This document shows, piece by piece, positions 7,915 to 62,648 of a stretch of DNA of 64,000 nt (position 1 is its first letter; each line of letters starts with the position of its first letter). Position numbers and translations under genes: made by a program. The notes under the pieces are model-generated. The model made no database searches, was not told the DNA's origin, and saw only the letters and a list, made by a program, of their open reading frames with translations. The stretch comes from a bacterium. GTDB lineage: Bacteria; Zixibacteria; MSB-5A5; CAIYYT01. The stretch spans positions 31,699 to 95,698 of the forward strand of contig JADJGC010000008.1 of NCBI GenBank assembly GCA_016708315.1. Direction: 5' to 3'.

Positions 7915-8270
7915 CAGACAGTTTTCGAGGAGTTCCCGGTAACTGGCGCAGTTGTCGCCGACCGCCTGAATATTCGAGATCCAGTAACGGCTGTGCGTAT
8001 CGGCAGCGACAGCCTGCTCTCGGCTCAGGTAAAGGGGATTGAGGTGACAGCGCCGGTGTAAGCCTTGTGCAGCGTATCAACGTTGGTGTACTTCCCGAGG
8101 CAGATCGCCAGCGAGAGGTTGGGACGGATTTTGCGGTAAAGCCGGACGATGAGCGAAACCCATTCCTGATCGGAGACGATGGTCCGCTTCTCCGGTTTCC
8201 TGGTTTTGTCCGGCTGGCAAGCGGGTGTGAGAGCGGGCAGAAGCGGCGGCTCAAGTAACTCTTCCATGCG

Positions 8271-13682: not shown

Positions 13683-15029
13683 TCACTTCAATTGCTCCAG
13701 GAGCCGGGCGTTTTGTTTGAGTTCATCCACAACGAGTGGTCTCGATGGCTCCCTTCCTGGCTCCGGTTTGGTCTCTTTCGAAGTCTCGGATACGGGATGT
13801 GTGTTCTTCGTTTCCGGTTCAATTCCTGCCTTCAGCGCGGTCGTATATTCCTCCTCTGCGCGCTCGACCGCCGTTTTGGCTGCTTCCTCGTCGATCTTGA
13901 ACTTCGTGAGATTATCGCCGGATTCCTGCAAGTCTTTGAGCAGCCGGGTTTGCTCGGCCTTTGCCTTCGCCAGCTTGGTCTCTGCTTCAGATGGTGCGAT
14001 GTCTTCGATCGCTCCCTCGCGTTCCAGCATCGTACGGCGCTTCTGTTCCAGTTGCCGGATTTCCAATGAATTCGTCGCCGCCTTTTGCGATAGGTCGTGG
14101 ACCCGATTCTCGGTTTCGATTCGCCGGGCAATGATCTGGTTGGCCTGCTCGGTGCGAAGATCGAGGGCCTGCTTTCTGGCATGCACCAAGGCCTTGTCAG
14201 TCCACGAACTCTTTCGGACCAGGAAGCTTGAATTGGCTTCCGCTGAGAGTGTGGATTCCTGGTCGGGCTGGCTGTCTTCGATCTTCAATTTGCCTTCCGG
14301 AATCCTGGGTTCGTTGTGGTCGTCGAGGATCGTCGCCGTGATGAAGATGGTCAGATAATTGACGTCCTTTTTGTCCTGCTCGTTGCGGAACAGTTTCCCG
14401 AGGCCGGGAATATCGCCCAAATAGGGCACCTTGTTCCGGCTCTTGCTGGACGTGGAAGTTCGCAAGCCGGCGATGACCACGGTGTCTCCGCTGTCCAGGG
14501 TGAACTCGCCGTTGAACGCGCGGCCCGAGGTCTGCGGCACCTGCCGCGGTGGAGTGCCTTGGGTGCCGGAGGAAACGGTGACGAACTGGTCGAGTTGACT
14601 GACGCTGATCGCGGTGCCCAGTTTGAGACGAACGCCGTCCTGGATGCGCGGCAGGATGTTGATCGTGGTGCCGACGTTTACGAACGAGGTGTTGTCGTAT
14701 CCGACGCCGGACCCGCCAGCGGAGTAGCCGGCCGCAACGGAACTGCCCGAGATGTAGGGAATCTGTTGCGTCGCCGCAAAGGCGACCTCCCGGCCGTTGG
14801 CGGTAATGGTCGAGGGTTGGGCAACCGTCTCGCCTTTCTGATCGTTCACGAAGAAATTGACGGTGGCGGAGATGTCGTTGCGCAGAACGATGGAACTCAT
14901 CGGATTCCCGAAGGAGGATGCGAGCTGACGGAAGCTGCTCATGGCGCCGAACGAATTGGTGCGCTGCCTGCGGACGTTCCCGGCGGCACCAAACCAAAAG
15001 TGAGTCCGGGCGAAAGCATGCTGGCCCAA
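13683..15029 (-). CDS. secretin (GspD/PilQ family), C-terminal secretin-domain fragment; gene split by frameshift
   Basis: VPYLGDIPGLGKLFRN...LTIFITATIL secretin signature; overlaps the upstream fragment in another frame. Confidence 0.8.
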   Translation of the reverse strand: MGQHAFARTHFWFGAAGNVRRQRTNSFGAMSSFRQLASSFGNPMSSIVLRNDISATVNFFVNDQKGETVAQPSTITANGREVAFAATQQIPYISGSSVAAGYSAGGSGVGYDNTSFVNVGTTINILPRIQDGVRLKLGTAISVSQLDQFVTVSSGTQGTPPRQVPQTSGRAFNGEFTLDSGDTVVIAGLRTSTSSKSRNKVPYLGDIPGLGKLFRNEQDKKDVNYLTIFITATILDDHNEPRIPEGKLKIEDSQPDQESTLSAEANSSFLVRKSSWTDKALVHARKQALDLRTEQANQIIARRIETENRVHDLSQKAATNSLEIRQLEQKRRTMLEREGAIEDIAPSEAETKLAKAKAEQTRLLKDLQESGDNLTKFKIDEEAAKTAVERAEEEYTTALKAGIEPETKNTHPVSETSKETKPEPGREPSRPLVVDELKQNARLLEQLK

Positions 15030-15919
15030 TCCACCCCCATCCGGCTCATCGGATTCGAAGTGGTGGCGAAAATGCGGACGTCGATGCGGATATTGGGGTT
15101 CCGCATATTGGCGATTTCCAGATACTTCGCGACGCGGTCCGCCGCCTGACGGGTGCCATAAAGCAGCACTTGTTGTTTTTCTTCGTAGTACCAGACCTTG
15201 CTGCTTTTCTCGTCACCCACGTTGGCCACCTTCTCCAGCAGCGATTCGATTTCCCCATATTTGCCCCCGTTCTCCACAGTGAGCGATCCGGCGCTGGCCG
15301 AAACGGCGTTGCCCGCACCAGAATAGCCGGCGCCGCCACCCGTCGGCGCGCTCTGAGCCCCGCCTTTGAACCGATCGATGAAGTTGTCTTTCAACTTGAA
15401 TTTGTAGAAGGCGACCTGGTTCGTGTATTTGCGGACGGTGTAAAGTCCAGTGTCGGCGTCGTAGAGTTCCAGGCCGCGATGTTTCAGGAGGAACTCCATC
15501 AAATCCCTCGGCTTGGGCTGGGCCATTTGCAGGGTGATCTCCTCGTCTGGAATCTGGTCGGCTTCCGGTTCCAGATAGTTCAGGCCGGACGAACGGGCCA
15601 GCAACTTGAAGACAGATCGCAACGGAACACCTTCGATGGCCAGATAGGGGGCGTCATTCGTTTCGGGGGCGACGGAGAGGATCGGGCTATTGGTTCCCGC
15701 CGGTTCAAACAAGCCCATGAGCCGAACCTGGGTGTCGGTTGTGAAGGGCAGGCCCGGCTTGTCCGCGCGATTTGTTGCAGCGGCTGTCATGTCGACGGCG
15801 GCTGTCTTGTCCGGGTCCGGCCGGGTTTCGGTATTTGTTTGCGCCGTGAGCGCCGTGCCCATCAGGCACCAGCAAAGGGTCATTGCTCGCAGACCGGCTT
15901 GCATTCGGAATCTCATCAC
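14939..15919 (-). CDS. secretin N-terminal fragment (signal peptide, N-domains, start of secretin domain)
   Basis: Signal peptide, VPLRSVFKLLARSSGLNYL N-domain motif, IRIDVRIFATTSNP...GVDW; ends TGA at 14939-14941 inside overlap. Confidence 0.75.
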   Translation of the reverse strand: MMRFRMQAGLRAMTLCWCLMGTALTAQTNTETRPDPDKTAAVDMTAAATNRADKPGLPFTTDTQVRLMGLFEPAGTNSPILSVAPETNDAPYLAIEGVPLRSVFKLLARSSGLNYLEPEADQIPDEEITLQMAQPKPRDLMEFLLKHRGLELYDADTGLYTVRKYTNQVAFYKFKLKDNFIDRFKGGAQSAPTGGGAGYSGAGNAVSASAGSLTVENGGKYGEIESLLEKVANVGDEKSSKVWYYEEKQQVLLYGTRQAADRVAKYLEIANMRNPNIRIDVRIFATTSNPMSRMGVDWASMLSPGLTFGLVPPGTSAGSAPIRSAP

Positions 15920-15963: not shown

Positions 15964-17904
15964 TTATTTGAAGTCCTCTGCCTGAAAATCGAGAAACAGT
16001 TTCTGGGCGTCTTTGAGGTCCACCTGGCCTTCGTTGACCAGTTCCATGGCCTGCGCCATGATCGGTCTGAAGGCAGAATGTTGCTCGGCGTGCCGCACAA
16101 TCTCCGCGTGAGTCTGTCCCTTGAGCAGGAGTTCCCGCATGCCGGCGTCCACGGGAATGATTTCGGTGATGATTCTGCGGCCGGTGTAACCTTTGTGGCA
16201 GTTGCGGCAGCCGATGGTGTTGGCATGGTAAATCGCCGGATTCAATCGCACGCCGCTTTGCTTCTCGATGCGCACCATCTCCAGTTCGGTGGGCCGGCGG
16301 CTCTTGCGGCAGACCGGACACAGGCGCGGGATCAGGCGCTGGGCCAGAATCAGGCGCACCGCATCGGCGATCTGGTGCGCTTCCACATCCAAAGCCTGCA
16401 ACCGGTCGAACGTCCCGCTCGCCGAGTTCGTGTGCAGTGTCGTTAGAACCAAATGACCCGTATTGGCGGCCTGAACGGCGATCTGCGCCACTTCCCGGTC
16501 GCGGATTTCGCCCAGGAGAATGACGTGGGGCGCCTGGCGCAGGAGCGCGCGCAGGCCGCGGGCGAATGTCAACCCGATGACCTCGTTCACCTGCGTCTGG
16601 CTGATGCCGGGGATGTAAGTCTCGATCGGATCTTCGAGGCTGCACACGTTCAGCCGTTCGCGGTCCATCTCCTGGATGGCAGAGTACAACGTCGTTGTCT
16701 TGCCGGACCCGGTCGGGCCGGTGACGATCATAATGCCATTCACCATGCTGAGGGCCTTGCGCATGAGCTGAAGATGCCCCGGGTGCATGCCCAGCTTGTC
16801 GAGGTTGGGAAAGCGAATGGTGGCACTCAGCAGCCGTAGCGTGATTTTCTCTTCCTGACTGTCCAGCACCGGCATGGTCGCGGCCCGGATTTCCACGGGC
16901 GTGCCCCGGATGCTGAGGGTGATCTTGCCGTCCTGGGGCAGGCGCTTCTCGGTGATGTTCATGCCGGCGCGCACCTTGAGATGCAGCACGATATTGGTTC
17001 CGTACTGTTTGGGCATCCCGTCGAAGAATGTCGTGTTGATGCCGTCAATGGTGAAGCGTATCCGGTAATCGTTGATTTGCGGCTCGACCAGAATGTCGGA
17101 GGCGCCACGCTTGTAGGCGGCGAAGATCGCCGCCTCGGCAATCAGCTTGACCTTGACGTTCTTCGGATCGAGTTGCTCGTCGGTGAATTGGGCGGGGTCA
17201 ATGCTGTCAGCGAGGCTGTCGGGAATAACGTCGTCCTGCTTGATGAACTTGGACAACTGGATCGTCTTGTTAACCTGTTCCTCAAGGAAGCGATTGTAGT
17301 CCCGTGGCAGGACCGGGATCAGTTGCACGGCCAACCCCTGGCGGCGGATTTGCTCGGACACGGTCTCGACGCTGTTGAAACGGTCCCAGTTGAGCACGTA
17401 TCCCAACTGCATCAATCGATGGTTCTCAAACAGGATGACCGCTTCCACTGCCTTCAACGTTGCGGCACTTACGCGCTTGGACTCCTGCGGCACGTCGACG
17501 ATGTCCAATCCAATGCAGGACTCGCCTTTGATTTTGCGGGAGAACCAGTATTCCCATTCCGGCGAAACGTCGTCAAAGCTGTCGGTTGCTTTGATCTTCT
17601 CGAGAGCATTGCGATCTTCCTCCGTCAGTGCGTTGTGTGTCATCTGCCACTCGGCCCATTCCCTCGGCACTGATGGGGGCGGCTTGGAGTCCGCTGAGTA
17701 GGCTTTTGCCGATGGGCCGGCGTAGCGTTGGTCCCACGCTTCCGCCAGTTTCTGAAATGCACTCCAGGTGCAGAGGACCATCTGAAGGTTCTCCTTGTGG
17801 AAACACGCCGGCAGCGGCACGTGTGGATCGTAATGTGCCAGCAGAATTCCTGGTCCTTGCGTCATCACCGGCACGTGTCCGTTTTGCTCCCGTTGAAACC
17901 CCAA
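15964..17904 (-). CDS. type II secretion / type IV pilus assembly ATPase (GspE/PilB)
   Basis: GspE_N domain, Walker A MIVTGPTGSGKTTTLYS, Asp/His boxes, C-terminal CxxC...CxxC. Confidence 0.9.
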   Translation of the reverse strand: MGFQREQNGHVPVMTQGPGILLAHYDPHVPLPACFHKENLQMVLCTWSAFQKLAEAWDQRYAGPSAKAYSADSKPPPSVPREWAEWQMTHNALTEEDRNALEKIKATDSFDDVSPEWEYWFSRKIKGESCIGLDIVDVPQESKRVSAATLKAVEAVILFENHRLMQLGYVLNWDRFNSVETVSEQIRRQGLAVQLIPVLPRDYNRFLEEQVNKTIQLSKFIKQDDVIPDSLADSIDPAQFTDEQLDPKNVKVKLIAEAAIFAAYKRGASDILVEPQINDYRIRFTIDGINTTFFDGMPKQYGTNIVLHLKVRAGMNITEKRLPQDGKITLSIRGTPVEIRAATMPVLDSQEEKITLRLLSATIRFPNLDKLGMHPGHLQLMRKALSMVNGIMIVTGPTGSGKTTTLYSAIQEMDRERLNVCSLEDPIETYIPGISQTQVNEVIGLTFARGLRALLRQAPHVILLGEIRDREVAQIAVQAANTGHLVLTTLHTNSASGTFDRLQALDVEAHQIADAVRLILAQRLIPRLCPVCRKSRRPTELEMVRIEKQSGVRLNPAIYHANTIGCRNCHKGYTGRRIITEIIPVDAGMRELLLKGQTHAEIVRHAEQHSAFRPIMAQAMELVNEGQVDLKDAQKLFLDFQAEDFK

Positions 17905-17976
17905 TGCCTGGCAACGGGCGAACAGTGTCGGGGAAGCCGTGACGTGGACGTTGGTTAGAAACGACAGTTCCAGAAC

Positions 17977-18183
17977 CTAGGCAATGAATCCGGTCAGGTC
18001 CTCCTCGCCGAGAAAATTTTCGTCGCTGGACCGGATGGTATTCGAGGTGAGAAACTCGAAGAGATTTGGAACTGGCTCCTCAAAACGCAGGAGATGCTCC
18101 TGGGCAAACCGATCAAGGAGTTGTTGCAGCCCTGGCGTGACAATCAGCGCGGATGCTTCGGAGACGGTCTCGGAGCCTGTCAT
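17977..18183 (-). CDS. small acidic hypothetical protein
   Basis: 68-aa ORF in otherwise empty 545-bp gap. Confidence 0.25.
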   Translation of the reverse strand: MTGSETVSEASALIVTPGLQQLLDRFAQEHLLRFEEPVPNLFEFLTSNTIRSSDENFLGEEDLTGFIA

Positions 18184-18449
18184 CTTTTAATTATAGGCTC
18201 GTGGAAGACAAGAGGCGGAATCGTCGCGGTGGCGCCTTCCCGGCTCTATAATTCATTGGGATGAATCCGAGAATCGATCTCAGCCCTAAAGAGGTCGAGA
18301 GACTCCCCCGCGGAGTGCATCCCTGCCGCGAATACCGCGTGTTCGACCACAAACACGACCAATAGGTCCTCTACCGGGAATTTCTGTACGAAACGGCGCA
18401 CGGCATAGCGCACATCATCCTGGCACCCGGGCGAAACCTGCAGCAAGGC

Positions 18450-22230: not shown

Positions 22231-22319
22231 CTGGCCGCCTTGTTGTTGGAGCAGTTCCGTCTCCGCGCGTAACTGCTGAATTTGGCCGATCGCCTTTGAA
22301 GTTCGGCAATCCTTTCTTT

Positions 22320-28530: not shown

Positions 28531-29619
28531 TTACGTTCCGAGGGCGATGATCTCCTTTTTGACTTCGCCGTCGATTTGGCCCTGGCGATGGAGAATCTCC
28601 GCGGCCTTCTGCCAGTTTTGCATGCCGAAGTCGTTGTGGCCTGATTCGATGGCGCGGCGCACCCCTTGCAGGTCTCTCTGTTTGATGTAGGAGGCCACGC
28701 TGTCATTTGTCAGCAGAATCTCGCGTGCGGCCACCCGTCCTCCCTCCCGGCCTTTGACCAGGATTTGGCACAGGATGGCCTTGAGGCTGGTCGAGAGCAC
28801 GTTCCAGACGCTGGGCTGTTCGGCGGACGGAAACAGGTTGACGAACCGTTCAATCGACTGTGCCGCGTTGGACGTGTGCAGGGTGCCGAAGACAACATGT
28901 CCGGATTCGGAGGCCCGCAAGGCGATGTCGGCCGTTTCGTGATCGCGAATCTCGCCGACGAGAATCGTGTCGGGGTTCTGGCGCAGAGCCGCCCGCAACC
29001 CGAAGGCAAATGTGTTTACCGAAATGCCGACTTCGCGTTGAGAGATGTCGGAGCGTCCGTGCTTCAGGATGTACTCGACCGGCTGCTCGAGGGTGATGAT
29101 GTGTTCGCGAAAAGTGTCGGCGCGATGCTGGAGGAGCGCGGCCAGTGTGGTTGACTTTCCCTGACCTGTCTTGCCACAGACCAACACCAAACCCTGTTTG
29201 AACGCTTCAACGGTCTGCACGGTGCGCGCATCCAGTTGAATTTCATCCGGGGTGGGAATGTGATCGTTCAACGGCCGCAACGCGATTCGTGCCGTCTGCC
29301 GCAAGGCCTCGGGATCGAGAACACGATAAAAATTGAACCGGTAACGTTTCTTGTGGCAAGTGAGGGCGCCGTCCACCGATCCTTCCGGGTAGATTTCCAT
29401 CCGGGTGATGGAGCCCTTGATCACCGTCTCGCCGGCTTGGTTCAAAAAGGCGACGAGCGCGTTTTCGTCCGGCGCGATGATGGAGGTGGGACAGACTTCG
29501 CCGTTCGCGCGAACATGGATGGTTTTCCCGGCGCAGACATAAATGTCGCTGACCTTGCGCTCGACTAGTTGGTTGAGCACACCGGCCAATTGCTCGGGAC
29601 TCTGAATCTGATCTGCCAT
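28531..29619 (-). CDS. pilT: twitching-motility / retraction ATPase PilT family
   Basis: Walker A GLVLVCGKTGQGKSTT, Asp box, His box (GHVVFGTLHT), PilT C-terminal region; start at MADQIQ (ATG 29619). Confidence 0.9.
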   Translation of the reverse strand: MADQIQSPEQLAGVLNQLVERKVSDIYVCAGKTIHVRANGEVCPTSIIAPDENALVAFLNQAGETVIKGSITRMEIYPEGSVDGALTCHKKRYRFNFYRVLDPEALRQTARIALRPLNDHIPTPDEIQLDARTVQTVEAFKQGLVLVCGKTGQGKSTTLAALLQHRADTFREHIITLEQPVEYILKHGRSDISQREVGISVNTFAFGLRAALRQNPDTILVGEIRDHETADIALRASESGHVVFGTLHTSNAAQSIERFVNLFPSAEQPSVWNVLSTSLKAILCQILVKGREGGRVAAREILLTNDSVASYIKQRDLQGVRRAIESGHNDFGMQNWQKAAEILHRQGQIDGEVKKEIIALGT

Positions 29620-29626
29620 CGTTCCA

Positions 29627-30343
29627 TTATAGTGACCTCTGCGACTTCTGTTGCAGCAGGCGATGGATTTCCCCGGCCAGAACATTCATCAGACGGGTCA
29701 CGTCTTCCGGTGTGAGTAGCGGCTCGTTTGCCTTCTGCGGGGCGTTACCTGGGGCGAGGGGCGCGGTCGCCTTCGGGAGATCAGCGCTTTTGGTTCCAGG
29801 CGGCATCACGATTGGCGTTGCGTCAGCGTGCCCGCGCAATGTTGGGATCGAAGTCGATGATAGAGGAATGGCGGCCTTGGCAGGCGATGGTTTTAGCACG
29901 TAGCCGGCCGACACAGTGTCTTTCTGCTCAGCCGGCTTCACCCTGTTCAGCAACTCCCTCAGACACGCCGGGCTGGCCAGCACGAACTTGACCTGGGAAC
30001 ATGGCTGGAAGTAACCGAGCAAAACCTCGGCGGTAATGGGGTCCCAAGGACAACTGCTGATGACGACGAGCGTTTCCCCGCGCCGGGCCAGGGGAACAAT
30101 TTGATAATCCCGAAGGGCATCGGTTTCGAGTTCTGCCGCAAGAGGGCGGCAGTCGGAAAGCAAGGCATCGGTCAGGTCTTCGGTTTCGATGATTGGAACG
30201 CCCAGCACATAGGCCAGCGCGGCCATAAACTCGGCCTCGTTGACACTCTGTTTATCCAGGGTGGCAGGGCTCGCGCCGCGCCGCTCGGCGATGGCTTGAT
30301 ACACGTCGGCCAGAGTCTGATTTGGAATGTCGGCGGCGTTCAT
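29627..30343 (-). CDS. stand-alone GspE-N / MshEN-like domain protein
   Basis: GVPIIETEDL...YQIVPLARRGETLVVISSCPWD resembles the N-terminal domain of T2SS-E ATPases; Pro/Ala-rich C-terminus. Confidence 0.55.
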   Translation of the reverse strand: MNAADIPNQTLADVYQAIAERRGASPATLDKQSVNEAEFMAALAYVLGVPIIETEDLTDALLSDCRPLAAELETDALRDYQIVPLARRGETLVVISSCPWDPITAEVLLGYFQPCSQVKFVLASPACLRELLNRVKPAEQKDTVSAGYVLKPSPAKAAIPLSSTSIPTLRGHADATPIVMPPGTKSADLPKATAPLAPGNAPQKANEPLLTPEDVTRLMNVLAGEIHRLLQQKSQRSL

Positions 30344-30907: not shown

Positions 30908-31705
30908 TCATTCCAGGGCCTTCAAGGCAGCAGCGACTTCCTCATGGATTTCTCCTTTCCGTGCGAGCTCATCCAGGCAGCTGTTCCAATCGATGCCTCC
31001 TCCGGCGCTGATCAGCTCCCGAATTCTCACGGGCGGCACACTTTGGTTGTTGAGATGATAGAGCAGTTGCGCGAGGTCCTTGGTTCGGAATAGCACTTCG
31101 TAACCCAGGACCCGCCGTGGGTCCTGCTCCGTTGCGTTCCTGGCTGGGATCAGGTTTTGCGCGACGATACACAGAAGGTTGTTGGCAAGCATCTGCGCCA
31201 CCAAACGAGAATCGGTTCCGGCCTGGGCCAGAATGCGATCAATGGCCTGGTACGCGGAGGACGCGTGCATGGTGCCGATGATCAAATGGCCGGTTTCGGC
31301 GGCGGTGATGACCGTGCGCATGGTTTCCGCATCGCGGATTTCGCCAATGGCAATGACCTCCGGTTTCATGCGCAGCGCATCCATCAGCCCTTTGGAATAA
31401 CTGGCGCAGTCGACCCCAACGCTGCGCTGAGTCACCATCGAGTAGGCGGACTGCTGCTTGTGCAAACGGGGAGCAAACAGAAACTCGACCGGATCCTCAA
31501 GCGTCACCACGTGGTAGGGGTTCGCGTCGATCAGATGCTGGATGACGGCAGCCAAAGTGGTGGACTTGCCGGCGCCGGTGGGGCCGGTGATCAGGATCAG
31601 TCCCTTGGTTTGTTGCAGCGTCTGGACGAGTTTGTCGTAGTGTTTTTGCTGGAGACCAAGCTTGTCCAGGTCAAGCAGGTTTCGATCAAGCACCCGGACG
31701 GTCAA
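30908..31705 (-). CDS. PilT-family ATPase, ATPase domain (TTG start directly after in-frame TAG)
   Basis: LILITGPTGAGKSTT Walker A, Asp/His boxes. Confidence 0.8.
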   Translation of the reverse strand: MTVRVLDRNLLDLDKLGLQQKHYDKLVQTLQQTKGLILITGPTGAGKSTTLAAVIQHLIDANPYHVVTLEDPVEFLFAPRLHKQQSAYSMVTQRSVGVDCASYSKGLMDALRMKPEVIAIGEIRDAETMRTVITAAETGHLIIGTMHASSAYQAIDRILAQAGTDSRLVAQMLANNLLCIVAQNLIPARNATEQDPRRVLGYEVLFRTKDLAQLLYHLNNQSVPPVRIRELISAGGGIDWNSCLDELARKGEIHEEVAAALKALE

Positions 31706-32092
31706 CTACGGCCCGCTCAAGGTGCTGACCAGGATGGCGCGGTAGCGGCATTCTCTTTGGATCTGGTCGAGCGCCGAGGAGAGGGTGCCGGAGAAATGAT
31801 ATGACTCCTTGTTGGCAATACAGTTCCTGGCTTCTTCAAAGCGTGAATTGAGCAGGAACTGGAGGACCACGTCCATTTTGTCCTGGTCGATCACGGGCGC
31901 TCCAGTCACTTCGGTGAAAAAGCCCTGGCGGCGGATAAACGGTTTGCGGCCCAGGGCGATGTAGTAGTCGTTGACGTCCGACGTGATGACCAGATTGAGG
32001 ATGCCGCGGGCCTGGTCTGCGGCCTGATCCACCTCAAGGTTTCTGGGGAGCATGGTGATCATGGTTGTGGTTTGCAGGTGCGGGCTTGCCAA
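31706..32092 (-). CDS. PilT N-terminal domain, separated from ATPase domain by an in-frame TAG (31706-31708)
   Basis: SDVNDYYIALGRKPFIRRQGFFTEV resembles the PilT N-domain; same reading frame as 30908..31705. Confidence 0.5.
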   Translation of the reverse strand: MASPHLQTTTMITMLPRNLEVDQAADQARGILNLVITSDVNDYYIALGRKPFIRRQGFFTEVTGAPVIDQDKMDVVLQFLLNSRFEEARNCIANKESYHFSGTLSSALDQIQRECRYRAILVSTLSGP

Positions 32093-32294: not shown

Positions 32295-32485
32295 AATTCG
32301 TTCAGCACCGCTCGCAACTTCTCCCGATAATCCTCCTGCACCTTTGGGTCGGGGCGAAACGCGTTGGTGACGGCCAAACCGAAGACGGCAATCACGCGCC
32401 CGCTGCCGTCAATCACCTCTTCGCCGATGAGTTGGTTTGTCAGCGGCCGGACGAGGAAGGTCTTGCCCAGCGACCCCGTTTCCAC
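32291..32485 (-). CDS. fragment 3 of the same disrupted gene
   Basis: As above. Confidence 0.3.
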   Translation of the reverse strand: METGSLGKTFLVRPLTNQLIGEEVIDGSGRVIAVFGLAVTNAFRPDPKVQEDYREKLRAVLNEL

Positions 32486-41581: not shown

Positions 41582-42025
41582 TCACTTTGGTTGGGATCTT
41601 TCAAAATGACTACTTGGACTCCACGGCCGCCGTTGCTGCTGGGTTCTGCCGACTGCGGTGCGGCTTGGGTTGCTACGAGAGGCGAAGGTGATTTGCCGGT
41701 CCACCAATGAGGGAGCAACGGGGCTGAGTTTGGATCGATCAAGCAGGTTCTGGAAAATTGTGTCGCGCAACAGTTCTTCGGCTTGTTCGAGTGAGAGATC
41801 GCGATGGGAGGCGATCACTTGCACAAGCTGCTCCATCGTCATCCCGCGGACTCGTTCCCTCAGAATCCTTTTCTCTAGACGCGAGAAACCATCTGGGCTG
41901 CTGATGCGCACGGTTTCCAGCAGGACGCCGCGCTCGGAGGGCGTTTGAGTCTGTTTGTAGAGTTCCAGTAGTTTCTCGACCTGATCCATTTTGGCATTCG
42001 CTTCGCGGTTCAGACGCGAAATCAA
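41582..42025 (-). CDS. hypothetical protein
   Basis: 147-aa ORF. Confidence 0.35.
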   Translation of the reverse strand: MISRLNREANAKMDQVEKLLELYKQTQTPSERGVLLETVRISSPDGFSRLEKRILRERVRGMTMEQLVQVIASHRDLSLEQAEELLRDTIFQNLLDRSKLSPVAPSLVDRQITFASRSNPSRTAVGRTQQQRRPWSPSSHFERSQPK

Positions 42026-47756: not shown

Positions 47757-49047
47757 CCTGGCTCGAAGAATAGGCGTGATCGCGGTAGCGATCCTTGTCG
47801 CTCAAGTATCCCGGGGTGGTCTTGAGAAAATACGGGGCAATCGGCGTGGTCTCGTGGATCCAGGTCATGCCCTCGTTCTGCTGCCCGAATTGGCGCTGTT
47901 CCAGCACCAGATTATTGAGCGCATCCAGGTCGGCGGCCCAGAGATGAATTGAGTGTGCGGCGGTCCAAGGGCGGTCCTTGCCCGTGGCTAGTTCGTCAAT
48001 TTCCGCTTCAATCTCTTCCAACGTTCGGCGCAGCTCGGGTTGTTTCTCCACGCGGCCCAGCACCTGAAGGCGCCGATTTTTGAGCCGGCGCAGCCGCCTG
48101 CCAATGTCGCTGCTGCGCGCCTCCACGCTGAATGCGCCAGAGACAAAACCCGGCGCCAGCATCTGCGGCAGCAACATGCCAAACTGCAACTGTGTGGGCG
48201 GCTCGTGAAGAAACAAAATCCGCCGGTAAAGGCCGTCCATTTGAATCCAACCCTGCCGCGGGTTCACTTCCATCTGGCCATGGACGAAATAGGATGTGGC
48301 CGGCTTCGGTTCAATCGGAGCGTAAGGCGGCGGCCGCACGCCTTGTGAGTACGACTTCGGGTTGTACCACCAGTAAAGCGTCTCGACGATGTCTTCGGAG
48401 GGCAGGAGTCTCGACTCGATGCCAGCGGCCTTCAGGATGGCCTGAGCCTGCTGCGCCTGTTTGGAGAGCAGGTTGACGGCGGTGTTCCACTCTTCCTCCG
48501 TCAGGTTCGCAGCCTCGGCCATCGAGAGTTCAAGGCTGTCGCGCAGGAAATGGGTCACGCGACTCAACCAGTTTTCCTTGGGACTCAATTTGCGATGCCG
48601 CTTGATGCGCTCGGAGAATTCCACGATCGGCTCGACGCCGACGAAGAGGTAGCAGGCGTACCGGCGCAACTGGTTGGTGGCGACTTTCTCCTGGTAGTGC
48701 TGGCCGATGTCCTGCTTGAACTGCGCCAGCAGGGGATTGCCTTTGGGCGTCGTCGACAAGTAGTCATCCAGCAATTTGCCGTATTGATTGTGGCAGATGG
48801 TGATGAACTGGAGCCGGGTTTCTGTGTCGCCCATCACGGCCAACTGGTTGAGCATGCTGCTGAAAGCGTTGTGCAGTTCATCCGCCTGCGCGCTCGAAAC
48901 AAAGAGGGTGTCCGGATACTGCACCCGCAACCCGACCGCCAACGACATGTCCTGAGCAACGATGACGTGGTTGTCTATCCAGGCGATGGGAATTTCTTCA
49001 TCGAGACAAACCCCGGAAAGACGGTTGATCCGCTCGTAATCCAGCAT
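47650..49047 (-). CDS. VirB4/TrbE-family ATPase, N-terminal part
   Basis: 465 aa with CagE/TrbE/VirB4 N-region character; overlaps the C-terminal part by 107 nt in another frame. Confidence 0.7.
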   Translation of the reverse strand: MLDYERINRLSGVCLDEEIPIAWIDNHVIVAQDMSLAVGLRVQYPDTLFVSSAQADELHNAFSSMLNQLAVMGDTETRLQFITICHNQYGKLLDDYLSTTPKGNPLLAQFKQDIGQHYQEKVATNQLRRYACYLFVGVEPIVEFSERIKRHRKLSPKENWLSRVTHFLRDSLELSMAEAANLTEEEWNTAVNLLSKQAQQAQAILKAAGIESRLLPSEDIVETLYWWYNPKSYSQGVRPPPYAPIEPKPATSYFVHGQMEVNPRQGWIQMDGLYRRILFLHEPPTQLQFGMLLPQMLAPGFVSGAFSVEARSSDIGRRLRRLKNRRLQVLGRVEKQPELRRTLEEIEAEIDELATGKDRPWTAAHSIHLWAADLDALNNLVLEQRQFGQQNEGMTWIHETTPIAPYFLKTTPGYLSDKDRYRDHAYSSSQVGDLAARTVFARRNRSPTFVPIPYETWHNVQFCAP

Positions 49048-50154: not shown

Positions 50155-52281
50155 TCAATCTGCTGCGAGCATTTTTTTGCAGTGCGGGCATTCAGGGATC
50201 CGGGCCAGAAACGGAGCTGAGGTGGGCGGTAACAAAGGCGCGCACATGTCCGCGCCGAACATGTGCACGGGGTCAAACTTCTCTGGCGTGGCAATCGCGG
50301 CCGAATCGTGTGGAATTATAAAAGCATAATCCCGGTGACAATCACCGCATTTTCGACGGCCCCATTCGGAATCACAGTCCCGGCAGGTCATCATGGCGGC
50401 GTCTTCCTGCTGGTCCACGGAAGTTGATTGGCAGCATGGACAAGATTGGAGGACCTGGAGTCGGTCGCGCACATTAACAAGGCGCTCAAAAATCCCGCTT
50501 ACAACCCTGAGGGTTGCTTCTTCTTTTTGCTCCTGTGCGTTAATCTCCTTTTTTTGAAGGTTTACAGCGGCAAGCAAACGACGGTTATCCCGAACACGGT
50601 GCTCCTCCCGCTTAAGATTTTCCCGTGCGGAATAGGTTTGTTCCAATTGGCGCTTTGCTCTGGTAGCCCGCATTTGCGCTTCTGCGATCAAGGAGTCATC
50701 GGGCGGCACGGAAAATAGAAAATCCTGTTCCACCATGTGGATGCCGTGGCGGTGTGACAATTCGTGCCACACGTCTGCCCAGCCGTTCATTGGCACGCGG
50801 ACCGGAAGACTTGGCCAATCCAGTTCAGCGATCACCCAGCGAATGATACGCGCCACCAATTCGGTGGAGTCAATTTTCAGGGGCGATACTTCCACCCAAA
50901 CCATGTTGTCCGAAAACAAGGCCGAGGACCGAAGTCGTTTGAACTTTTCCACCACTGGATCCGACCAGTCAGCGGCAGTAGCACCAGAATCATCCACGCT
51001 CACGATCAACACTGGATGGCTTTGTTTTTTCATTTCGAGGAAAGTCTGGAAGGCAACATCGACCTGTTTTTCAGATTGCGCTCGCCAGCAGGTGTATAAC
51101 CCAACGATATGCAATTGTGGTTTTCCGTGGCATTCCAAAAGAAGTGAGTAATCGTTCTGGACCAGCAGCGTCCACTGGCGGGCCAAGCTTATTCGCTTTC
51201 CGAGCGCAATGGGTTGATTCGTGTTTTCGGTCGGAATCAGTCCGAGTTGCCGGCACGCGCGGATGGTCAGCAACACCGTGAATAGATTCCAATCCGAACA
51301 CGCCCGCCTTCGATTTGCGGCGCGCTCGGCAGGGGTAGGCGGCTTAACCGAGGCCACGCGTTCCCACATGTGCCACAAATGAAAAGCCTGGCGATAGTGG
51401 GCATCACTTTGAAAGACGTTCGTTGAATGCAATGGACTCTCGACCGCGGCGAAGTGCGGCATCTGCTTGAAGAGAAACGTATCGGCCAGTGCCAGCAGGC
51501 GCGCGCGGGCGGTTTCCAGGTCATGAATGAGTTGGGCGAGACGGTCGCGGCTCGGATGGCTTGAAAAAGCCTCACCCCATAAAATGAAAAGCCGGTCTCG
51601 ACGGAAGCGCGTGCCTTGTGCTGCCTCCGAATGTTCACTTGCTTCATCCAGGGCCTGCAAGATTTGCTGTAATTTCTGGAGTCGTGGATGGAGGACGCCC
51701 AAAATCCGTTTGCGGAGAGTAGCTACGGCGCGGTTTTCATAAATGTCCCATTGGTCTCGCCTTGATTCCGCAAGAATGCGCCTGGGGCGAACCCCAAGGA
51801 AGGTCCGGGTTTGCCAATCCTCCGAGTGGGCGGCGAGCGTCGCCACGGCGCGATGGGAGACCCGTCGCGCACGCCCCACTTCCTCCCGAATTTCCTCAAT
51901 CGTCAGATGACCTCGTGGATTGTGGCTGAGCGTTTCCACATGCGGCAGCGCCTGAATCAAAGCCTGCTCATAGTCGCGCAGGTCCAAGTCTGAGGTGATC
52001 GTTGGGTCCAGCGGAACCAAGCGCGGCCAAGGTTGCAGTTTCCCACCCCAAAGCGGCTCGATCCTGGCGGCGAGATTTCGCAAGCTTTGACAAAGCGTTT
52101 CAGTTGGCTCGCTGCCGGAATCGGGGCGCTCCAAATCCCGCTCCGTTCCCGGCCAAACGTGTCCGTTCCGGACAGATTGCCAAAGCCCCAAGAACGGCAA
52201 TGACTCAGGGGTTGAGCAAGACTGTCCCGTAATCCGGTTGCGCCAGAGTGTTTCCATCAATCGATCAGGTTGCGCCCCCAT
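50155..52281 (-). CDS. McrC-like partner of the McrB-like GTPase (candidate nuclease subunit); Cys-rich C-terminus
   Basis: 708 aa, start overlaps upstream McrB-like gene (operon order mcrB-mcrC); C-terminal CPCC...CRDC...CGDC...CPHC zinc-ribbon-like cluster; PD-(D/E)xK motif not confidently identified by eye. Confidence 0.5.
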   Translation of the reverse strand: MGAQPDRLMETLWRNRITGQSCSTPESLPFLGLWQSVRNGHVWPGTERDLERPDSGSEPTETLCQSLRNLAARIEPLWGGKLQPWPRLVPLDPTITSDLDLRDYEQALIQALPHVETLSHNPRGHLTIEEIREEVGRARRVSHRAVATLAAHSEDWQTRTFLGVRPRRILAESRRDQWDIYENRAVATLRKRILGVLHPRLQKLQQILQALDEASEHSEAAQGTRFRRDRLFILWGEAFSSHPSRDRLAQLIHDLETARARLLALADTFLFKQMPHFAAVESPLHSTNVFQSDAHYRQAFHLWHMWERVASVKPPTPAERAANRRRACSDWNLFTVLLTIRACRQLGLIPTENTNQPIALGKRISLARQWTLLVQNDYSLLLECHGKPQLHIVGLYTCWRAQSEKQVDVAFQTFLEMKKQSHPVLIVSVDDSGATAADWSDPVVEKFKRLRSSALFSDNMVWVEVSPLKIDSTELVARIIRWVIAELDWPSLPVRVPMNGWADVWHELSHRHGIHMVEQDFLFSVPPDDSLIAEAQMRATRAKRQLEQTYSARENLKREEHRVRDNRRLLAAVNLQKKEINAQEQKEEATLRVVSGIFERLVNVRDRLQVLQSCPCCQSTSVDQQEDAAMMTCRDCDSEWGRRKCGDCHRDYAFIIPHDSAAIATPEKFDPVHMFGADMCAPLLPPTSAPFLARIPECPHCKKMLAAD

Positions 52282-54646
52282 TCAAGCGTTTGATTTCCCG
52301 TTCCAGCAACTCGTAACATTTTACCGGTTGGTTAGGCTTATCAAAATTATCCCATTCCTGGATCAAATGGGTTTGGAACTCTTCGAGTTGTTTCGCCCCG
52401 AGATCAAACCTGCCGCGCAGCTTGCGAAGCAATTTGGTCGCAAGGATATGATCTGTGGCTTCACCCAGAGTGCCGCCGGCTTCAATAATAACCGGCACAA
52501 ACCGATTCATCTGGCTTTCGAGCCGATTGCCCCAGCCTAAACCCAGTTTGGCGAGCTGATGAGTGAGTGACTTATCCAAAAAGTTCTTGGCTCGGATAGC
52601 GGCATCCTTATGTGTGTTTACCGCCCGATTAAAGGCTCCATCGATTGCGTCCTGTGTGATCGGGACCGGCGAGTTAAGCGGTCTGGGCACGAAGGCCTCG
52701 GGGTGTCTCGGAAACTCCATCACATGGGAGCGGTCATAGGTTTTGTCGGCGAAATCCTTGGTGGTTTCGTCATGATTGGCCGTGCCGATGAACCAGACGT
52801 TGCGCGGAATGCGCAACCAGCGGGCTTCCTCGAGCAGCTGCGGAGCACCATCAATCCTGGACGTCAGCAGACTGACACGCTGCTTCTCCGGGATTTGTTC
52901 GAGTGCCGACAGGAAATCCGCAAAGTAGTGCTCCGGATGCGATAGATTCATTTCGTCCAAGACAATGAAAAACGGAACGTTCCGGTAGTGAGGCTGTTGG
53001 GCACGATACAGAGCCTGGAGAAACTCCGACTCATAATAACGTTTCTCGAATGCGTTGTAATAGCCCAACAAGTCGTTCCGGTCGCGCCAGCCAGATTGGA
53101 CTTCGACGATAGCCGAGGTGGCGCCGATGGCCCGGGCAAATTCGCGGGGGAGGCTAGTTTTACCAGTGCCGCTGATGCCTTGGAGCAAATGAAGCCGACT
53201 GGTGGCCAGACCGGCAAGAAATGCGCGCACGTCCTTGTCCCGGTAATAAAGTTTTTTCTCGCCTATCCGATTCCGAATCTCGTCCACCAAGTCTTTGAGC
53301 GGCGGCAGTTTCTCGAGCACCCTTGCCGGGGGTGTTTGAAGAGTCGCATCGCCATCCATCTCGATAAGGCTAGGGAAAACGCATTGAGCCTTCGACTTGT
53401 CAACTAGTTCCCCAAGCTCGCGGCGCAAATCCTCGACACAGGAACGTAGGGCGCGTTCGCGGCTATCCCAAGCTGCTTTCTGGTCTCTCAAATTTTGCAT
53501 TTCAGCAACGCCGATGGATAATTTGCTCATCTGGGACTGCAACGATTGGTTATCTTGGAGCAACCGTGCCAAATCCGAATGCAGAGTCTCATTCTCGCTT
53601 TCCAAGCCGATGAGTCGGGCAATCTGATCATCTGCAGGTTTACGGGCCAGTTCCGCCACCAACTTTCCGTGCCGCTCCTGCAACGTGGTCAGTTCAGACA
53701 GCAATTCTTCCCGTGTTTTTCCGGCGGCAACGCGTTCGGTTTCCTCGTAGCGGCTAATCTGCTCGGCAAGCTGTTTGCACCGGGCCAAAGCACTCTGCAA
53801 ACGGCTTTCCCGATCGGTAACCGCTTCCCGGACTTTTTCCTCAATTCTTGAGACCCAGTTGGTCTTAAGTTCTTCCGCCTCCTGCTTGGCCCACTCGGCT
53901 TCACGCTTGGATCGAGCCACTGCCTGTTTTTCCAACTGAAGTTGCTGTCTGCCTTCCTCCACGCCGACCAACTCGCGTTCCCGAATCTGGCGAAGCTCAG
54001 TTTCATATTTCTTTATGCCATCGAGATAACTCTGATGATGCTCGGCAATCTGCTTTGCCAAGGCCTTGGCTTCTTCATCAAGTTTTGCGAGTGCCTGACG
54101 ACGTTGTTGCAAAAATCCAGACTCGGCGTCGATCTCTCGTTCCTTTAGTTTTTCCTCTGACTGGATGATGTCTCTTTCCCGACGGTCCAACCCCGATTTG
54201 CGGTCATCCAATTCGCGCTGGGTCTTGCGCTGTTCATCCTTTTGCTGGCGTAGTTCCTCCTCACGCTTCTGAACCTGTGCGTTATGTTCATGGGCTTCGG
54301 CTTCCCGATTTTTGGCTTGTGCCTCTGCGGCCTCCATGCGGCTTTGGGAACGCTCAAATAGTTGCCGAGCTTCGTGAGCCACTTTCCATAGATTTAGCGG
54401 ATCAATTTCCGACGCGACGGGGGCCAGTGGCGGCATGGGCGGATTGTTGAGATCCTCCTCGGTCAGAAGGTTGGTCGCCTGATTCGAAATTACAGTGATC
54501 TGCGCCACAACTTCCGCAGGAGTGGATGGGCCAGCGGGATTGACAGGTGATGCCGAGGTTCCGGCATTCGCCACCGCCGGCTGCATATTTTGCCGTCTGT
54601 TATTGCGATCTTTTTTGCTCATAGTTTTGAGGCTTTGTCGTTGCAA
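52265..54646 (-). CDS. McrB-like AAA+ GTPase (AAA_5) with about 450-aa N-terminal coiled-coil domain
   Basis: GISGTGKTS Walker A, FFIVLDEMNLSHPE (McrB DEMN Walker B), GTAN...DRS signature; N-terminal half is E/R/K/Q-rich heptad sequence. Confidence 0.8.
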   Translation of the reverse strand: MQRQSLKTMSKKDRNNRRQNMQPAVANAGTSASPVNPAGPSTPAEVVAQITVISNQATNLLTEEDLNNPPMPPLAPVASEIDPLNLWKVAHEARQLFERSQSRMEAAEAQAKNREAEAHEHNAQVQKREEELRQQKDEQRKTQRELDDRKSGLDRRERDIIQSEEKLKEREIDAESGFLQQRRQALAKLDEEAKALAKQIAEHHQSYLDGIKKYETELRQIRERELVGVEEGRQQLQLEKQAVARSKREAEWAKQEAEELKTNWVSRIEEKVREAVTDRESRLQSALARCKQLAEQISRYEETERVAAGKTREELLSELTTLQERHGKLVAELARKPADDQIARLIGLESENETLHSDLARLLQDNQSLQSQMSKLSIGVAEMQNLRDQKAAWDSRERALRSCVEDLRRELGELVDKSKAQCVFPSLIEMDGDATLQTPPARVLEKLPPLKDLVDEIRNRIGEKKLYYRDKDVRAFLAGLATSRLHLLQGISGTGKTSLPREFARAIGATSAIVEVQSGWRDRNDLLGYYNAFEKRYYESEFLQALYRAQQPHYRNVPFFIVLDEMNLSHPEHYFADFLSALEQIPEKQRVSLLTSRIDGAPQLLEEARWLRIPRNVWFIGTANHDETTKDFADKTYDRSHVMEFPRHPEAFVPRPLNSPVPITQDAIDGAFNRAVNTHKDAAIRAKNFLDKSLTHQLAKLGLGWGNRLESQMNRFVPVIIEAGGTLGEATDHILATKLLRKLRGRFDLGAKQLEEFQTHLIQEWDNFDKPNQPVKCYELLEREIKRLNGGAT

Positions 54647-56243
54647 GATTCAGTAGACACCCAGTTGCGTGAATAATCAGCTCCCACATCTCTTCTGCTT
54701 CCGAAATTGAAAAGCGTTTAGGCGAAGGGTTGTGCGAGTCATCATGAGATCCCGCGTTGCCTAGGTCGATTATGCGGGCAAGCTTGCGCAAGAACTCTAC
54801 ATCTTTGGACGCTGCTTTTCTGAGGGGATGGACCGGGTGCAATGATGACGCCAACAAAGTTGCAACCACTGCACTTGGCAATTTGTAAACGTTACCCACA
54901 TCCCGGCATATTCCAATTATGAGGCCTTTGTTTGGCTTTCCGCCCGACTTATCAATCTGAAAAACTCCGGGCAATGGCAGGCGTAATCCAATTGATTGAG
55001 CTATGTGGTCAACGGTTGCCCGGTCAATCGCAACGTCGCCGTTAAGAAGTGCCGGCGCATTACTCAACGATGAAACTCGAGCGATTGACTTCAGCAACGC
55101 TTCAAGCGTCCTTCGACATGATTGCATGACCGAGCCGAGGTCACTCTGAGATTCTCCTTCGGTGGCTCTCGCCAGGGATAAACTTTTGGCCGCTGCCACC
55201 AGGTGCTCAAAAACGGCGGAGGTTGCCTTAATATCGAGGGACAGTCGCGCCACGACCTCGGATTCGGCAATTTTTTGTTGCTGCTCCAACAACTCCTCCA
55301 AGGCCGGAGCATCCTTAATCTGCGCGAATCGCAAAAAATCCCGCTGGGCACCAGCCGCGCCCTCATCGTCTCTAGCTATTCGTTGCAGTTGACGCCACAT
55401 TTTCTCGTCGCACCCAAATCCGAACGGATCACAAATCTGAGGTAGAAATGCGCTCCCTTTGGGCAAGTATCCAAACGTAACCAGCCCGGCTGGCTCGGGC
55501 TGGTCGCTAATCGAAGCGATACGCGCGAGCAATTCAGGTGAATCATCGCCGGCGATTCCCATTATCTCCGATGCATCCAAGCGCATTGATTTTTTCTGTT
55601 CTTCACGACGGCGACACTGCTTTACCGCCCGCAAAATCATGGCGCTGGATGGTTGCACCGGGCTCGCCGGGGCATCGAAGGTCCAAGCAGGAACCTTGCG
55701 TAGCCCCCTTTTTGAATCCAGTGCCAAGTTCAAACGTCCCAGTCCATAGCCTATGGTGGTTTCTTGAAGCTGAAGCTGTTGGCTGAAGTGCGGCCAGAGT
55801 TCGCCGCTCCAGGGGTCTTGGAATACCCAACCGGTGATCAATGTATCTATGATCAATTCTTCTTTTTCAAGGACGTCAAGCCCCTTGGGTGTCGGGCGGA
55901 ATGATTTCTGGTCCACCCAGCCAGAACGGACCAACTCCATGCCGATATTTTCAACCAGGTGAGGATGGAGGTGAAGTTTGGTGGCGATCTCCGCGACCGA
56001 ATATGAATTGCTGCACCACAAACCGAGCACTGCTTTCTGGAGAAGGTTGATGCGTTGGTCTGATGGTGCTGGTGCCACCACCCGCCATGCGGCGCATGGC
56101 CAAACAAGATAGACACGCCCCGTGCGATCATAATCGTGGTGGGCGGCTCGGGGACCGTAATTTAAGACAAGATCCATGGTGTCAGAAAATTGCCCCATGG
56201 CTGCCCCGGCAAAGTTTTTGGAATGCATGGAGGCCGGGGACAT
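54600..56243 (-). CDS. hypothetical island protein (possible wHTH near N-terminus)
   Basis: 547-aa ORF between helicase and McrB-like genes, overlapping both. Confidence 0.5.
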   Translation of the reverse strand: MSPASMHSKNFAGAAMGQFSDTMDLVLNYGPRAAHHDYDRTGRVYLVWPCAAWRVVAPAPSDQRINLLQKAVLGLWCSNSYSVAEIATKLHLHPHLVENIGMELVRSGWVDQKSFRPTPKGLDVLEKEELIIDTLITGWVFQDPWSGELWPHFSQQLQLQETTIGYGLGRLNLALDSKRGLRKVPAWTFDAPASPVQPSSAMILRAVKQCRRREEQKKSMRLDASEIMGIAGDDSPELLARIASISDQPEPAGLVTFGYLPKGSAFLPQICDPFGFGCDEKMWRQLQRIARDDEGAAGAQRDFLRFAQIKDAPALEELLEQQQKIAESEVVARLSLDIKATSAVFEHLVAAAKSLSLARATEGESQSDLGSVMQSCRRTLEALLKSIARVSSLSNAPALLNGDVAIDRATVDHIAQSIGLRLPLPGVFQIDKSGGKPNKGLIIGICRDVGNVYKLPSAVVATLLASSLHPVHPLRKAASKDVEFLRKLARIIDLGNAGSHDDSHNPSPKRFSISEAEEMWELIIHATGCLLNLATTKPQNYEQKRSQ

Positions 56244-57336
56244 ATTGGGAAAATTCGGACGAGGCCATGGCTGAATCTCCGACCGTAATCAATAATCGCT
56301 TTTGGCGACTCATCGCGACACACAGGCGGTTTTCAAGCAATAGATGGCCGAATTTGCGGCGAACACTTTTATCATCGGCGGGTTGAATTCGGTTTGAACG
56401 AGTCAGCGAGAGGATGACAACATCGAATTCCTTGCCTTGAAAGGCATCCACGGTCCCGACGCGAAGACGTTCGCACACTTCGCGTTGAGCGTTGACTGTG
56501 CTGCGCCAGGCATCCGCAATGACCAAATCGTTATCATCCGACAGGGTTGTCAGGTCCACCCGTTGCATTGCGGTCATGATGGCCTTGACCTGCGCGGCAT
56601 AAAAAGAAATGATCCCCACGCTCAACCCGGGAGATTCTTGCAAGATGCGGCGTGTTTCGGCGGCAATCCAATCCGCCTCACAATGCCGAACCCAGCTGTG
56701 GTCGGCGTGTTCCTCTGCACCGTTGTAGATGGGCAGATTCTTCCAAACCGCAAGTTTTCCCTCGTAGCTTCCGCCCAAGCCGTGGGCAAATTGCGGGTTC
56801 AATTCGGCACCATCGGGCGATAGAAACGCCTCACCGTGGTCCTTGTAAAAGGCGTCACTTACAAAAGTGCCCAGCACCGGATGCATCCGGTATTGGGTGT
56901 CCAGCGTGACCCAGCGTTTTATACCGTCTAATTTCTCCAAATCCTTGACGTGGATGAACAGCCGTTCAAACAGGCTCTTACGGATCTGGTCGCGGGTCTC
57001 ATCACGAACAGATTGCTCAAGTTCGCGCTCCACTTCTGGCTCCAAAAGATGGGGCAGTTGCCGGTGATCACCCACCAAAATGATTCGCCGGGCGGCTCGG
57101 CTCAGGGGAATGAGCAAATCAAGGGGATTGGCCCGGGCCGCCTCATCGACAATGACATTCTCAAACTCAAGATCGTCCGAGAGCATTTCCATCATCCGGT
57201 CACTGACCGCCTGCTGACAAGTTGCCGCAAGGACCACCGTGTAATTCTCGACGGTTTTCCGCAACCCGACCGGGTCATTTCGCAGGTCCTGAATCAGTTG
57301 TTCGAGCACCATATCCGGCCCCCTCAGCCGACGCAT
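56182..57336 (-). CDS. Upf1-like SF1 helicase, C-terminal part (motifs II-VI); split from N-terminal part by frameshift
   Basis: IVDEAARANP (motif II), ILVGDHRQLP (III), VDAFQGKEFDVVILSLTRSN (V), CVAMSRQKRLLITVGD (VI). Confidence 0.75.
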   Translation of the reverse strand: MRRLRGPDMVLEQLIQDLRNDPVGLRKTVENYTVVLAATCQQAVSDRMMEMLSDDLEFENVIVDEAARANPLDLLIPLSRAARRIILVGDHRQLPHLLEPEVERELEQSVRDETRDQIRKSLFERLFIHVKDLEKLDGIKRWVTLDTQYRMHPVLGTFVSDAFYKDHGEAFLSPDGAELNPQFAHGLGGSYEGKLAVWKNLPIYNGAEEHADHSWVRHCEADWIAAETRRILQESPGLSVGIISFYAAQVKAIMTAMQRVDLTTLSDDNDLVIADAWRSTVNAQREVCERLRVGTVDAFQGKEFDVVILSLTRSNRIQPADDKSVRRKFGHLLLENRLCVAMSRQKRLLITVGDSAMASSEFSQYVPGLHAFQKLCRGSHGAIF

Positions 57337-59515: not shown

Positions 59516-59518
59516 GTG

Positions 59519-62365: not shown

Positions 62366-62648
62366 GAACACATGGTAACCAAAACTGTGAGTCAGCCGCA
62401 ACGAGCGAGTCAGCTTGGAAGCGACAGCGGATGTGAAACGCTGTGGAAGTGGGTTCACGGGCTGCGACCGATAGAAAGAGTGTTCCGGCCGCCACGAGCG
62501 GAGCGGGCAGAAAGTGATGAACTACGGGCAAAGCTCGAAGCGTTACCGTCGGCTGACAAAGCGGACGGGGTACCATTCAGCCGACGCATTTATCTCCGCC
62601 GCAGCGGATATTGCGAAGCTTTGTGCCGTGCATCCGTCGCTTCCGGCG

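Follow-up and report, generated by a model that had tools for sequence, protein, structure and literature searches.

Does the organism from which this DNA derives possess an intact secretin, or has the only gene for such an outer membrane channel in a pilus-like locus been disrupted by a frameshift? The question is raised by two overlapping open reading frames (ORFs) on the minus strand of the window (the whole stretch of 64,000 nucleotides that was analyzed), which lie in different frames, share 91 nt and were both found as the original prediction had described them. The reading frames and the gene that they would jointly form are the following:

14939..15919, minus strand: ORF1, N-terminal fragment, 326 aa (GenBank IPH59_08660 / MBK7091777.1, annotated with the start MQAGL and 321 aa)
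13683..15029, minus strand: ORF2, C-terminal fragment, 448 aa, frame -1 relative to ORF1 (GenBank IPH59_08655 / MBK7091776.1, TTG start at 15029)
13683..15916, minus strand: whole secretin gene, 744 codons after one G is restored at 14962

The source record is a metagenome-assembled genome (MAG) in GenBank with the locus-tag prefix IPH59, the organism name "bacterium" and a contig of 116,811 bp; the split is already visible in this record, where both secretin halves are listed as hypothetical proteins. Locus tags of the IPxxx type, including IPH59, and MBK7 accessions are presumably those of the Danish activated-sludge Nanopore and Illumina MAG set (PRJNA629478).

The N-terminus of ORF1, which begins with MMRFRMQAGLRAMTLCWCLMGTALTAQT, resembles a Sec signal peptide (as judged by eye), and its C-terminal end reads ..NIRIDVRIFATTSNPMSRMGVDWASMLSPGLTFGLVPPGTSAGSAPIRSAP, followed by the stop codon TGA at 14939-14941; past the lesion described below, ORF1 consists of seven out-of-frame codons (APIRSAP) before this TGA is reached. 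While the signal-peptide-like start of the N-terminal reading frame was thus found as proposed, the N-domains that had been attributed to it were not: Pfam detected no family in ORF1 (0 matches) and accordingly no N-domain, and the NCBIfam GspD profile alone extends back to residue 193 of the secretin. ORF2 harbors the Pfam Secretin domain (PF00263) at residues 62-235, covering the profile positions 4-168 of 169 with an E-value of 8e-33; its score of 113.8 bits against the Pfam cut-off of 27.5 places the protein in the secretin superfamily. ORF2 does not possess a signal peptide of its own, and its first approximately 23 residues stem from upstream gene sequence that is translated out of frame. 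No further ORF among those scanned across the 64-kb window matched PF00263; as had been assumed, it is the only secretin found in the window. In its deposited form, the gene does not encode signal peptide, N-terminal region and whole secretin domain on one polypeptide, as it is split at position 14962.

The joined translations of ORF1 and ORF2 were used as query in a database search. Approximately 50 secretin homologues were retrieved, each of them a single protein of 702-775 aa with a query coverage of 91-100%; they derive from Verrucomicrobiota MAGs and metagenomes, and some of them are labeled CpaC or GspD by JGI. The best match, P0001 (745 aa), showed 98% identity over 100% of the query (E=0), with both halves aligned colinearly. 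An arrangement in which homologous secretins end at this point and a separate second gene encodes the remainder was looked for and did not occur: none of the approximately 50 homologues ends at the stop codon of ORF1 or has the frameshift in common with the window. A chance pair of ORFs can be ruled out, since both halves match the same one-piece proteins colinearly. Restoration of one G results in a 744-aa protein that is aligned without gaps to the intact and independently assembled P0188 (744 aa, 98% identity) and is identical to it at every residue from 250 to 555, including the loop PPGTSAGSGTNSFGAMSSF. Judged from the sequence comparisons, ORF1 and ORF2 together are one secretin gene; the proposal of a single gene split by a frameshift is thus borne out by the one-piece homologues and, as detailed below, by four relatives that are in frame. 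A 352-aa fragment from another assembly (P0175) was considered as a further case of the same frameshift and rejected: it belongs to a different lineage, and its sequence becomes unrelated at a point 10 codons farther downstream.

The lesion was placed by DNA alignments to six relatives (L001, L002, L007, L003, L004, L005). Orthologous gene DNA was available from L001 and L002 (97.2-97.3% nucleotide identity), L007 (96.6%) and L003 (84%), and in all four of these the secretin is in frame at the lesion site. Compared with L001 over 5.2 kb, the window exhibits two gaps only, one of three nucleotides (CCA, at approximately 14970) and one of a single G at 14962, where GCGGCAC of the relatives appears as GCGCAC. 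Three sites in this region have to be distinguished:

14961..14963, minus strand: lesion; the gene strand reads CAGCGCACC versus CAGCGGCACC in all relatives (GG to G, frame -1)
14969..14971, minus strand: in-frame length difference of 3 nt (CCA absent) in a Gly/Ser-rich loop, 8 nt upstream of the lesion
14987-15000, plus strand coordinates: the caccaaaccaaaag stretch, identical in the intact L001, L002 and L007

The original prediction had implied an indel at the caccaaaccaaaag stretch; as this stretch is unchanged in the intact relatives, it is not the indel site, and the alignments place the missing G at 14962, 24 nt downstream of the stretch in the direction of the gene. The absence of CCA is a natural loop-length polymorphism, since intact homologues vary in length at the same loop: the short loop is present in the intact P0188, P0184 and P0019, and the variants at the CCA position in intact homologues include SSAQGSG, TSAGSG, SSVGGG and SSGSS. 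Based on the alignment to the structure of PulD (PDB 6hcg), the break interrupts the secretin domain; it is located in a loop that follows the conserved GVDW strand at a distance of approximately 20 residues.

The position of the break, which spares the beta-strands and affects a variable Gly/Ser loop, together with the ATGA overlap of stop and start at 14939-14942, might suggest that the split is functional, i.e. that a programmed -1 ribosomal frameshift or transcriptional slippage yields the full-length protein, or that two separately synthesized halves assemble into a secretin made of two pieces. These possibilities are effectively excluded: The frameshift is conserved in 0 of the approximately 50 homologues, and the site (GGC AGC GCA CCA) contains neither an X XXY YYZ heptamer nor a long A/T run, so that both hallmarks of programmed frameshifting, a conserved shift and a slippery heptamer or A/T run, are absent from this locus. 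The ATG of the ATGA overlap is the conserved Met codon of the ..GAMS.. motif in the intact relatives. Secretin biogenesis proceeds via Sec; a C-terminal piece that is devoid of a signal peptide could not leave the cytoplasm.

The frameshift in the secretin is not the only disruption of this kind. The ORFs of syntenic relatives (L003-L005, L007, L008, L010-L012) were compared with the window by tblastn, and the DNA was inspected wherever the frame changed. Besides the secretin, at least eight isolated single-base defects were found in conserved genes, namely six 1-nt indels and two GAG to TAG stops:

8031..8046, minus strand: SNF2-like gene (1338 aa in L003), one G missing at approximately 8044 (CACGCTC to CACCTC)
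22293..22296, minus strand: SbcC/SMC-like gene (922 aa in L003), one A missing at approximately 22295 (AAAA to AAA)
32473..32476, minus strand: gene of 107 aa, one base missing at approximately 32475
41703..41705, minus strand: gene of 173 aa, one T inserted at approximately 41704
47757..47759, minus strand: VirB4-like ATPase gene, one G inserted at approximately 47758 (CAGTTGG to CAGGTTGG)
57319..57323, minus strand: Upf1/MkoA-like helicase gene, frame change at a run of five G (exact indel presumed)
15964..18183, minus strand: immediate upstream neighbor of the secretin, a PilB-like T2SSE ATPase gene (739 aa in L003), in-frame TAG at 17977-17979
30908..32053, minus strand: PilT-like T2SSE ATPase gene (381 aa in relatives), in-frame TAG at 31706-31708

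Including the secretin, the 64 kb thus contain seven 1-nt indels and two nonsense substitutions, which corresponds to a density of approximately one defect per 7 kb and affects nine of approximately 62 genes, with exactly one lesion in each affected gene. Several of the defects are positioned at short homopolymers (A4 to A3, the G5 run, G to GG, GG to G); the indels at 8044 and 41704 lie outside homopolymers. The VirB4-like protein has 847 aa in all of its more than 20 homologues, and its N-terminal fragment in the window is deposited as MBK7091815.1 / IPH59_08850. The AAA_11 domain of the Upf1/MkoA-like helicase is divided between two ORFs, and plasmid homologues span the junction in one tblastn piece. 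At the TAG site of the PilB-like ATPase, five relatives have GAG or GAA; GAG or GAA is likewise present in relatives at the TAG site of the PilT-like ATPase.

Several further candidates were discarded. A reassignment of TAG as explanation of the two in-frame TAG codons was rejected, as TAG ends ordinary genes in the window. The overlap of an MshEN ORF (29627..30343) with a T2SSE ORF (28531..29685) does not represent a frameshift, the two being separate genes (of 241 and 362 aa) in relatives, and an apparent frame change near 18233 in comparison with L007 falls into the intergenic leader of the ATPase gene. A kinase ORF and a helicase ORF are parted by a single in-frame TAA (59519-59521), and the PADLOC MkoA profile covers both colinearly; with an ATG 3 nt past the TAA, they are probably two genes, and the site was not counted as a lesion.

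Does the coding sequence itself bear traces of decay? Window-specific codon changes were counted in the repaired secretin by comparison with L001, L002 and L007, with L003 as outgroup. The lineage of the window has acquired 15 synonymous changes and 1 non-synonymous change (P=2e-8 for at most 1 of 16 being non-synonymous under neutrality); nine of these 16 changes precede the lesion in the gene, whereas the other seven follow it, and each of these seven is synonymous in the repaired frame. Pairwise dN/dS ranged from 0.05 to 0.19 on both secretin halves. In the neighboring genes (a sigma factor, a gene of 200 aa and a DUF2201 gene), 11 synonymous and 7 non-synonymous window-specific changes were counted. 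This ratio is similar to that of the relatives themselves; in consequence, the contig exhibits no general excess of substitution noise and no relaxed constraint, and the isolated single-base lesions are its only anomalies. The sigma factor of the IPH59 contig is deposited as MBK7091774.1.

A real and very recent deletion, the main alternative to an assembly error, would make the secretin an ordinary young pseudogene within a conserved island and a defense locus that are in the course of inactivation. The signs expected of a pseudogene, multiple lesions per gene and an elevated dN/dS, were absent from the secretin, a result with which a very recent event is still compatible, and several features of the window point in the direction of such an event. 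Three of the lesions, those at 14962 (secretin), 17977-17979 (PilB-like ATPase) and 31706-31708 (PilT-like ATPase), affect parts of the same machine, so that, if the deletion were real, the pilus-like machine would be dead, with a split secretin and stop codons in both ATPases. Both nonsense changes are G to T substitutions, a common class of real mutations, in a contig whose substitution accuracy otherwise looks normal, and a ratio of seven indels to two nonsense changes fits, by our own estimate, a short period of neutral drift. Nevertheless, we consider a real deletion unlikely: Each broken gene carries a single lesion, selection on the secretin is not relaxed (15 synonymous versus 1 non-synonymous change), and every relative is intact, including four with a nucleotide identity of 96-97%. 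Nine independent events without a second hit in any gene would furthermore need near-simultaneous timing, and the lesions are scattered across unrelated functions (SbcC-like, SNF2-like and VirB4-like proteins, the Mokosh-like helicase and two small genes), as predicted for random error.

The broader version of this explanation holds that all nine lesions are real and that a conserved Verrucomicrobiota island and the adjacent Mokosh-like defense locus have been caught at the onset of decay within a single wastewater or environmental population. Genes for a type IV pilus-like machine and a VirB4-like ATPase are combined in this island with DNA replication and repair genes of its own; inactivation would have struck the secretin and both pilus ATPases nearly at once. 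That this has happened appears rather improbable.

The split is more likely a consensus error than a loss of the gene, given the eight other single-base disruptions in the window and the strong purifying selection on the secretin. From the position of the missing base, the intact relatives, the nearby lesions and the substitution pattern, all of which are directly observed, we infer an error and not a mutation: With a probability of roughly 0.75, the secretin gene is intact in the organism and its split was introduced during assembly, and most likely the split is not a real feature of the organism at all. According to this explanation, one G of the GG pair at 14962 would have been dropped from the consensus of an intact gene of 744 codons, whereupon gene callers would emit two overlapping "hypothetical proteins". 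The most likely cause is an indel left over in the consensus of a long-read or mixed-strain metagenome assembly (the sequencing technology being presumed), and the error would have arisen beside a loop whose length differs between co-occurring strains; indeed, a site 8 nt from a 3-nt strain-level polymorphism is a place where mixed-strain consensus formation or polishing might fail.

The window shows what is expected of consensus error, i.e. many isolated 1-nt indels in conserved ORFs without relaxed selection. For MAGs based on Nanopore reads, it has been documented that indels "cause fragmented gene calls", also when low-coverage short reads had been used for polishing (PMC9262707); the Danish activated-sludge set of Nanopore and Illumina MAGs is described in PMC9765116. 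The similarity to long-read consensus errors comprises the isolated 1-nt indels themselves, several of them in short homopolymers, which split conserved ORFs at approximately 11 per 100 kb, as well as a long MAG contig from which the fragments were deposited as separate hypothetical proteins. The combination of lone one-base lesions, several of them in short homopolymers, a long MAG contig and unrelaxed selection is the known signature of consensus errors that remain in incompletely polished long-read assemblies. There are also differences from this pattern: while indels are the classic error, two of the nine lesions are substitutions that create TAG, and the two indels outside homopolymers (8044 and 41704) likewise count against a consensus error. 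The same is true for the confinement of all nine lesions to one conserved island and the adjacent defense locus: a mobile element in very recent real decay would look similar, and our rate estimates cannot separate it from error.

In view of the at least eight other single-base defects and the strong purifying selection on the terminal branch of the secretin, the proposed non-functionality of the secretin of this locus is doubtful. The main value of the split is that of a data-quality flag: frameshift correction is needed before function is inferred from this contig, and statements such as "no functional secretin or pilus", as well as other inferences on gene content from this MAG, are unsafe as long as the sequence is uncorrected.

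Independently of the split, the intact family is modestly interesting as a Verrucomicrobiota secretin with a long C-terminal extension, encoded in a conserved pilus/VirB4/DNA-processing island. The repaired protein consists of a signal-peptide-like N-terminus, an N-terminal region, the beta-barrel domain and a C-terminal extension of approximately 200 aa that looks like a coiled coil. Among solved structures, the best match is Klebsiella PulD of the GspD/PulD type (PDB 6hcg; E=1.9e-18), whose alignment runs without interruption from residue 267 to residue 562 and takes in the G(V/I)xW strand, the lesion-bearing loop and the VPxLGDIPxxGxLF motif; PilQ and RcpA gave weaker PDB matches than GspD. 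In contrast to this structural similarity, the repaired secretin reaches only 114.1 bits with the GspD model (TIGR02517, cut-off 351), restricted to the profile positions 276-595, no Secretin_N or N0 domain was detected by Pfam, and the C-terminal extension is found where GspD/PulD possess a short S-domain. The differences from PilQ and MshL are of the same kind: the scores were 106.4 versus a cut-off of 250 bits for MshL (TIGR02519) and 90.3 versus 284 bits for PilQ (TIGR02515), and an AMIN domain was not found in the secretin by Pfam. As far as can be told from profile scores, the repaired secretin is a member of the PF00263 superfamily that falls below the cut-offs of all specific NCBIfam models, and it was therefore not assigned to a named subfamily.

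The gene context resembles that of type IV pili, with three T2SSE-family ATPases, an MshEN protein and several N_methyl (pre)pilins. The protein probably forms a GspD/PilQ-like channel in the outer membrane for the type IV pilus-like system encoded next to it, and in the organism the whole secretin would probably serve this type IV pilus or type II secretion-like machinery.

Besides the split secretin gene, the window carried eight single-base gene disruptions when compared with intact relatives, namely six 1-nt indels and two in-frame TAG codons; both nonsense codons resulted from a GAG to TAG change (G to T).

Single-base gene disruptions other than that of the secretin, each relative to intact relatives.
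8044: 1-nt indel, SNF2-like gene
17977-17979: in-frame TAG (GAG to TAG), PilB-like ATPase gene
22295: 1-nt indel, SbcC-like gene
31706-31708: in-frame TAG (GAG to TAG), PilT-like ATPase gene
32475: 1-nt indel, 107-aa gene
41704: 1-nt indel, 173-aa gene
47758: 1-nt indel, VirB4-like ATPase gene
57319-57323: 1-nt indel, MkoA/Upf1-like helicase gene

The secretin family itself is characterized by a conserved, charged and coiled-coil-like C-terminal extension of about 200 aa behind the secretin domain (13683-14330 in the window, about 200 codons), an architecture common to about 50 secretin homologues. N-domains were not found by Pfam, and every specific NCBIfam secretin model scored far below its cut-off for the protein of the window. 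The homologue P0175 from another assembly (Logan contig of 3.9 kb), which belongs to a different lineage, was cut off at 352 aa: its sequence becomes unrelated some 10 codons downstream from the site of the window's secretin lesion, within the same variable loop region, with an insertion, a chimeric contig or another frameshift as candidate causes.

At 28531-30343, the raw ORF for a 238-aa protein with an MshEN domain overlaps that of the 362-aa T2SSE ATPase which follows it. MshEN and ATPase are usually fused; in every relative examined the two were separate genes, so that the split is natural in this lineage. Among the ORFs scanned across the window, neither T2SSF (GspF/PilC platform) nor prepilin peptidase gave a Pfam match, although ATPases, pilins and a secretin are encoded; several conserved ORFs of 250-340 aa at 25.6-35.9 kb lack a Pfam match and could be divergent components that escaped detection.

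These genes lie in a conserved syntenic island (about 230-49400), also found in the relatives' contigs L003, L004, L005, L008, L011 and L012, that combines a type IV pilus/T2SS-like set (three T2SSE ATPases, MshEN, several N_methyl pilins, one secretin) with a VirB4-like ATPase, a sigma-70 factor and DNA replication/repair genes (5'-3' exonuclease, DnaN, PolA-like, DinG-like helicase, RNase HII, SbcCD-like, SNF2-like, DUF3854). The island is carried by Verrucomicrobiota contigs, the longest of them 604 kb, and bins with the labels Anaerolineales and Acidoferrum also contain homologues. A large mobile or DNA-transfer element is one possible interpretation of the island.

The region 52265-60985 is variable, being absent from the syntenic relative L011, and matched models of anti-phage defence: PDC-M26A (E=1.6e-51), MkoB (E=3.8e-9) and MkoA of the Mokosh system (E=6e-68), the MkoA profile covering the protein-kinase ORF and both helicase fragments colinearly. 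PP2C phosphatase and VWA genes come next, at 60958-62521.
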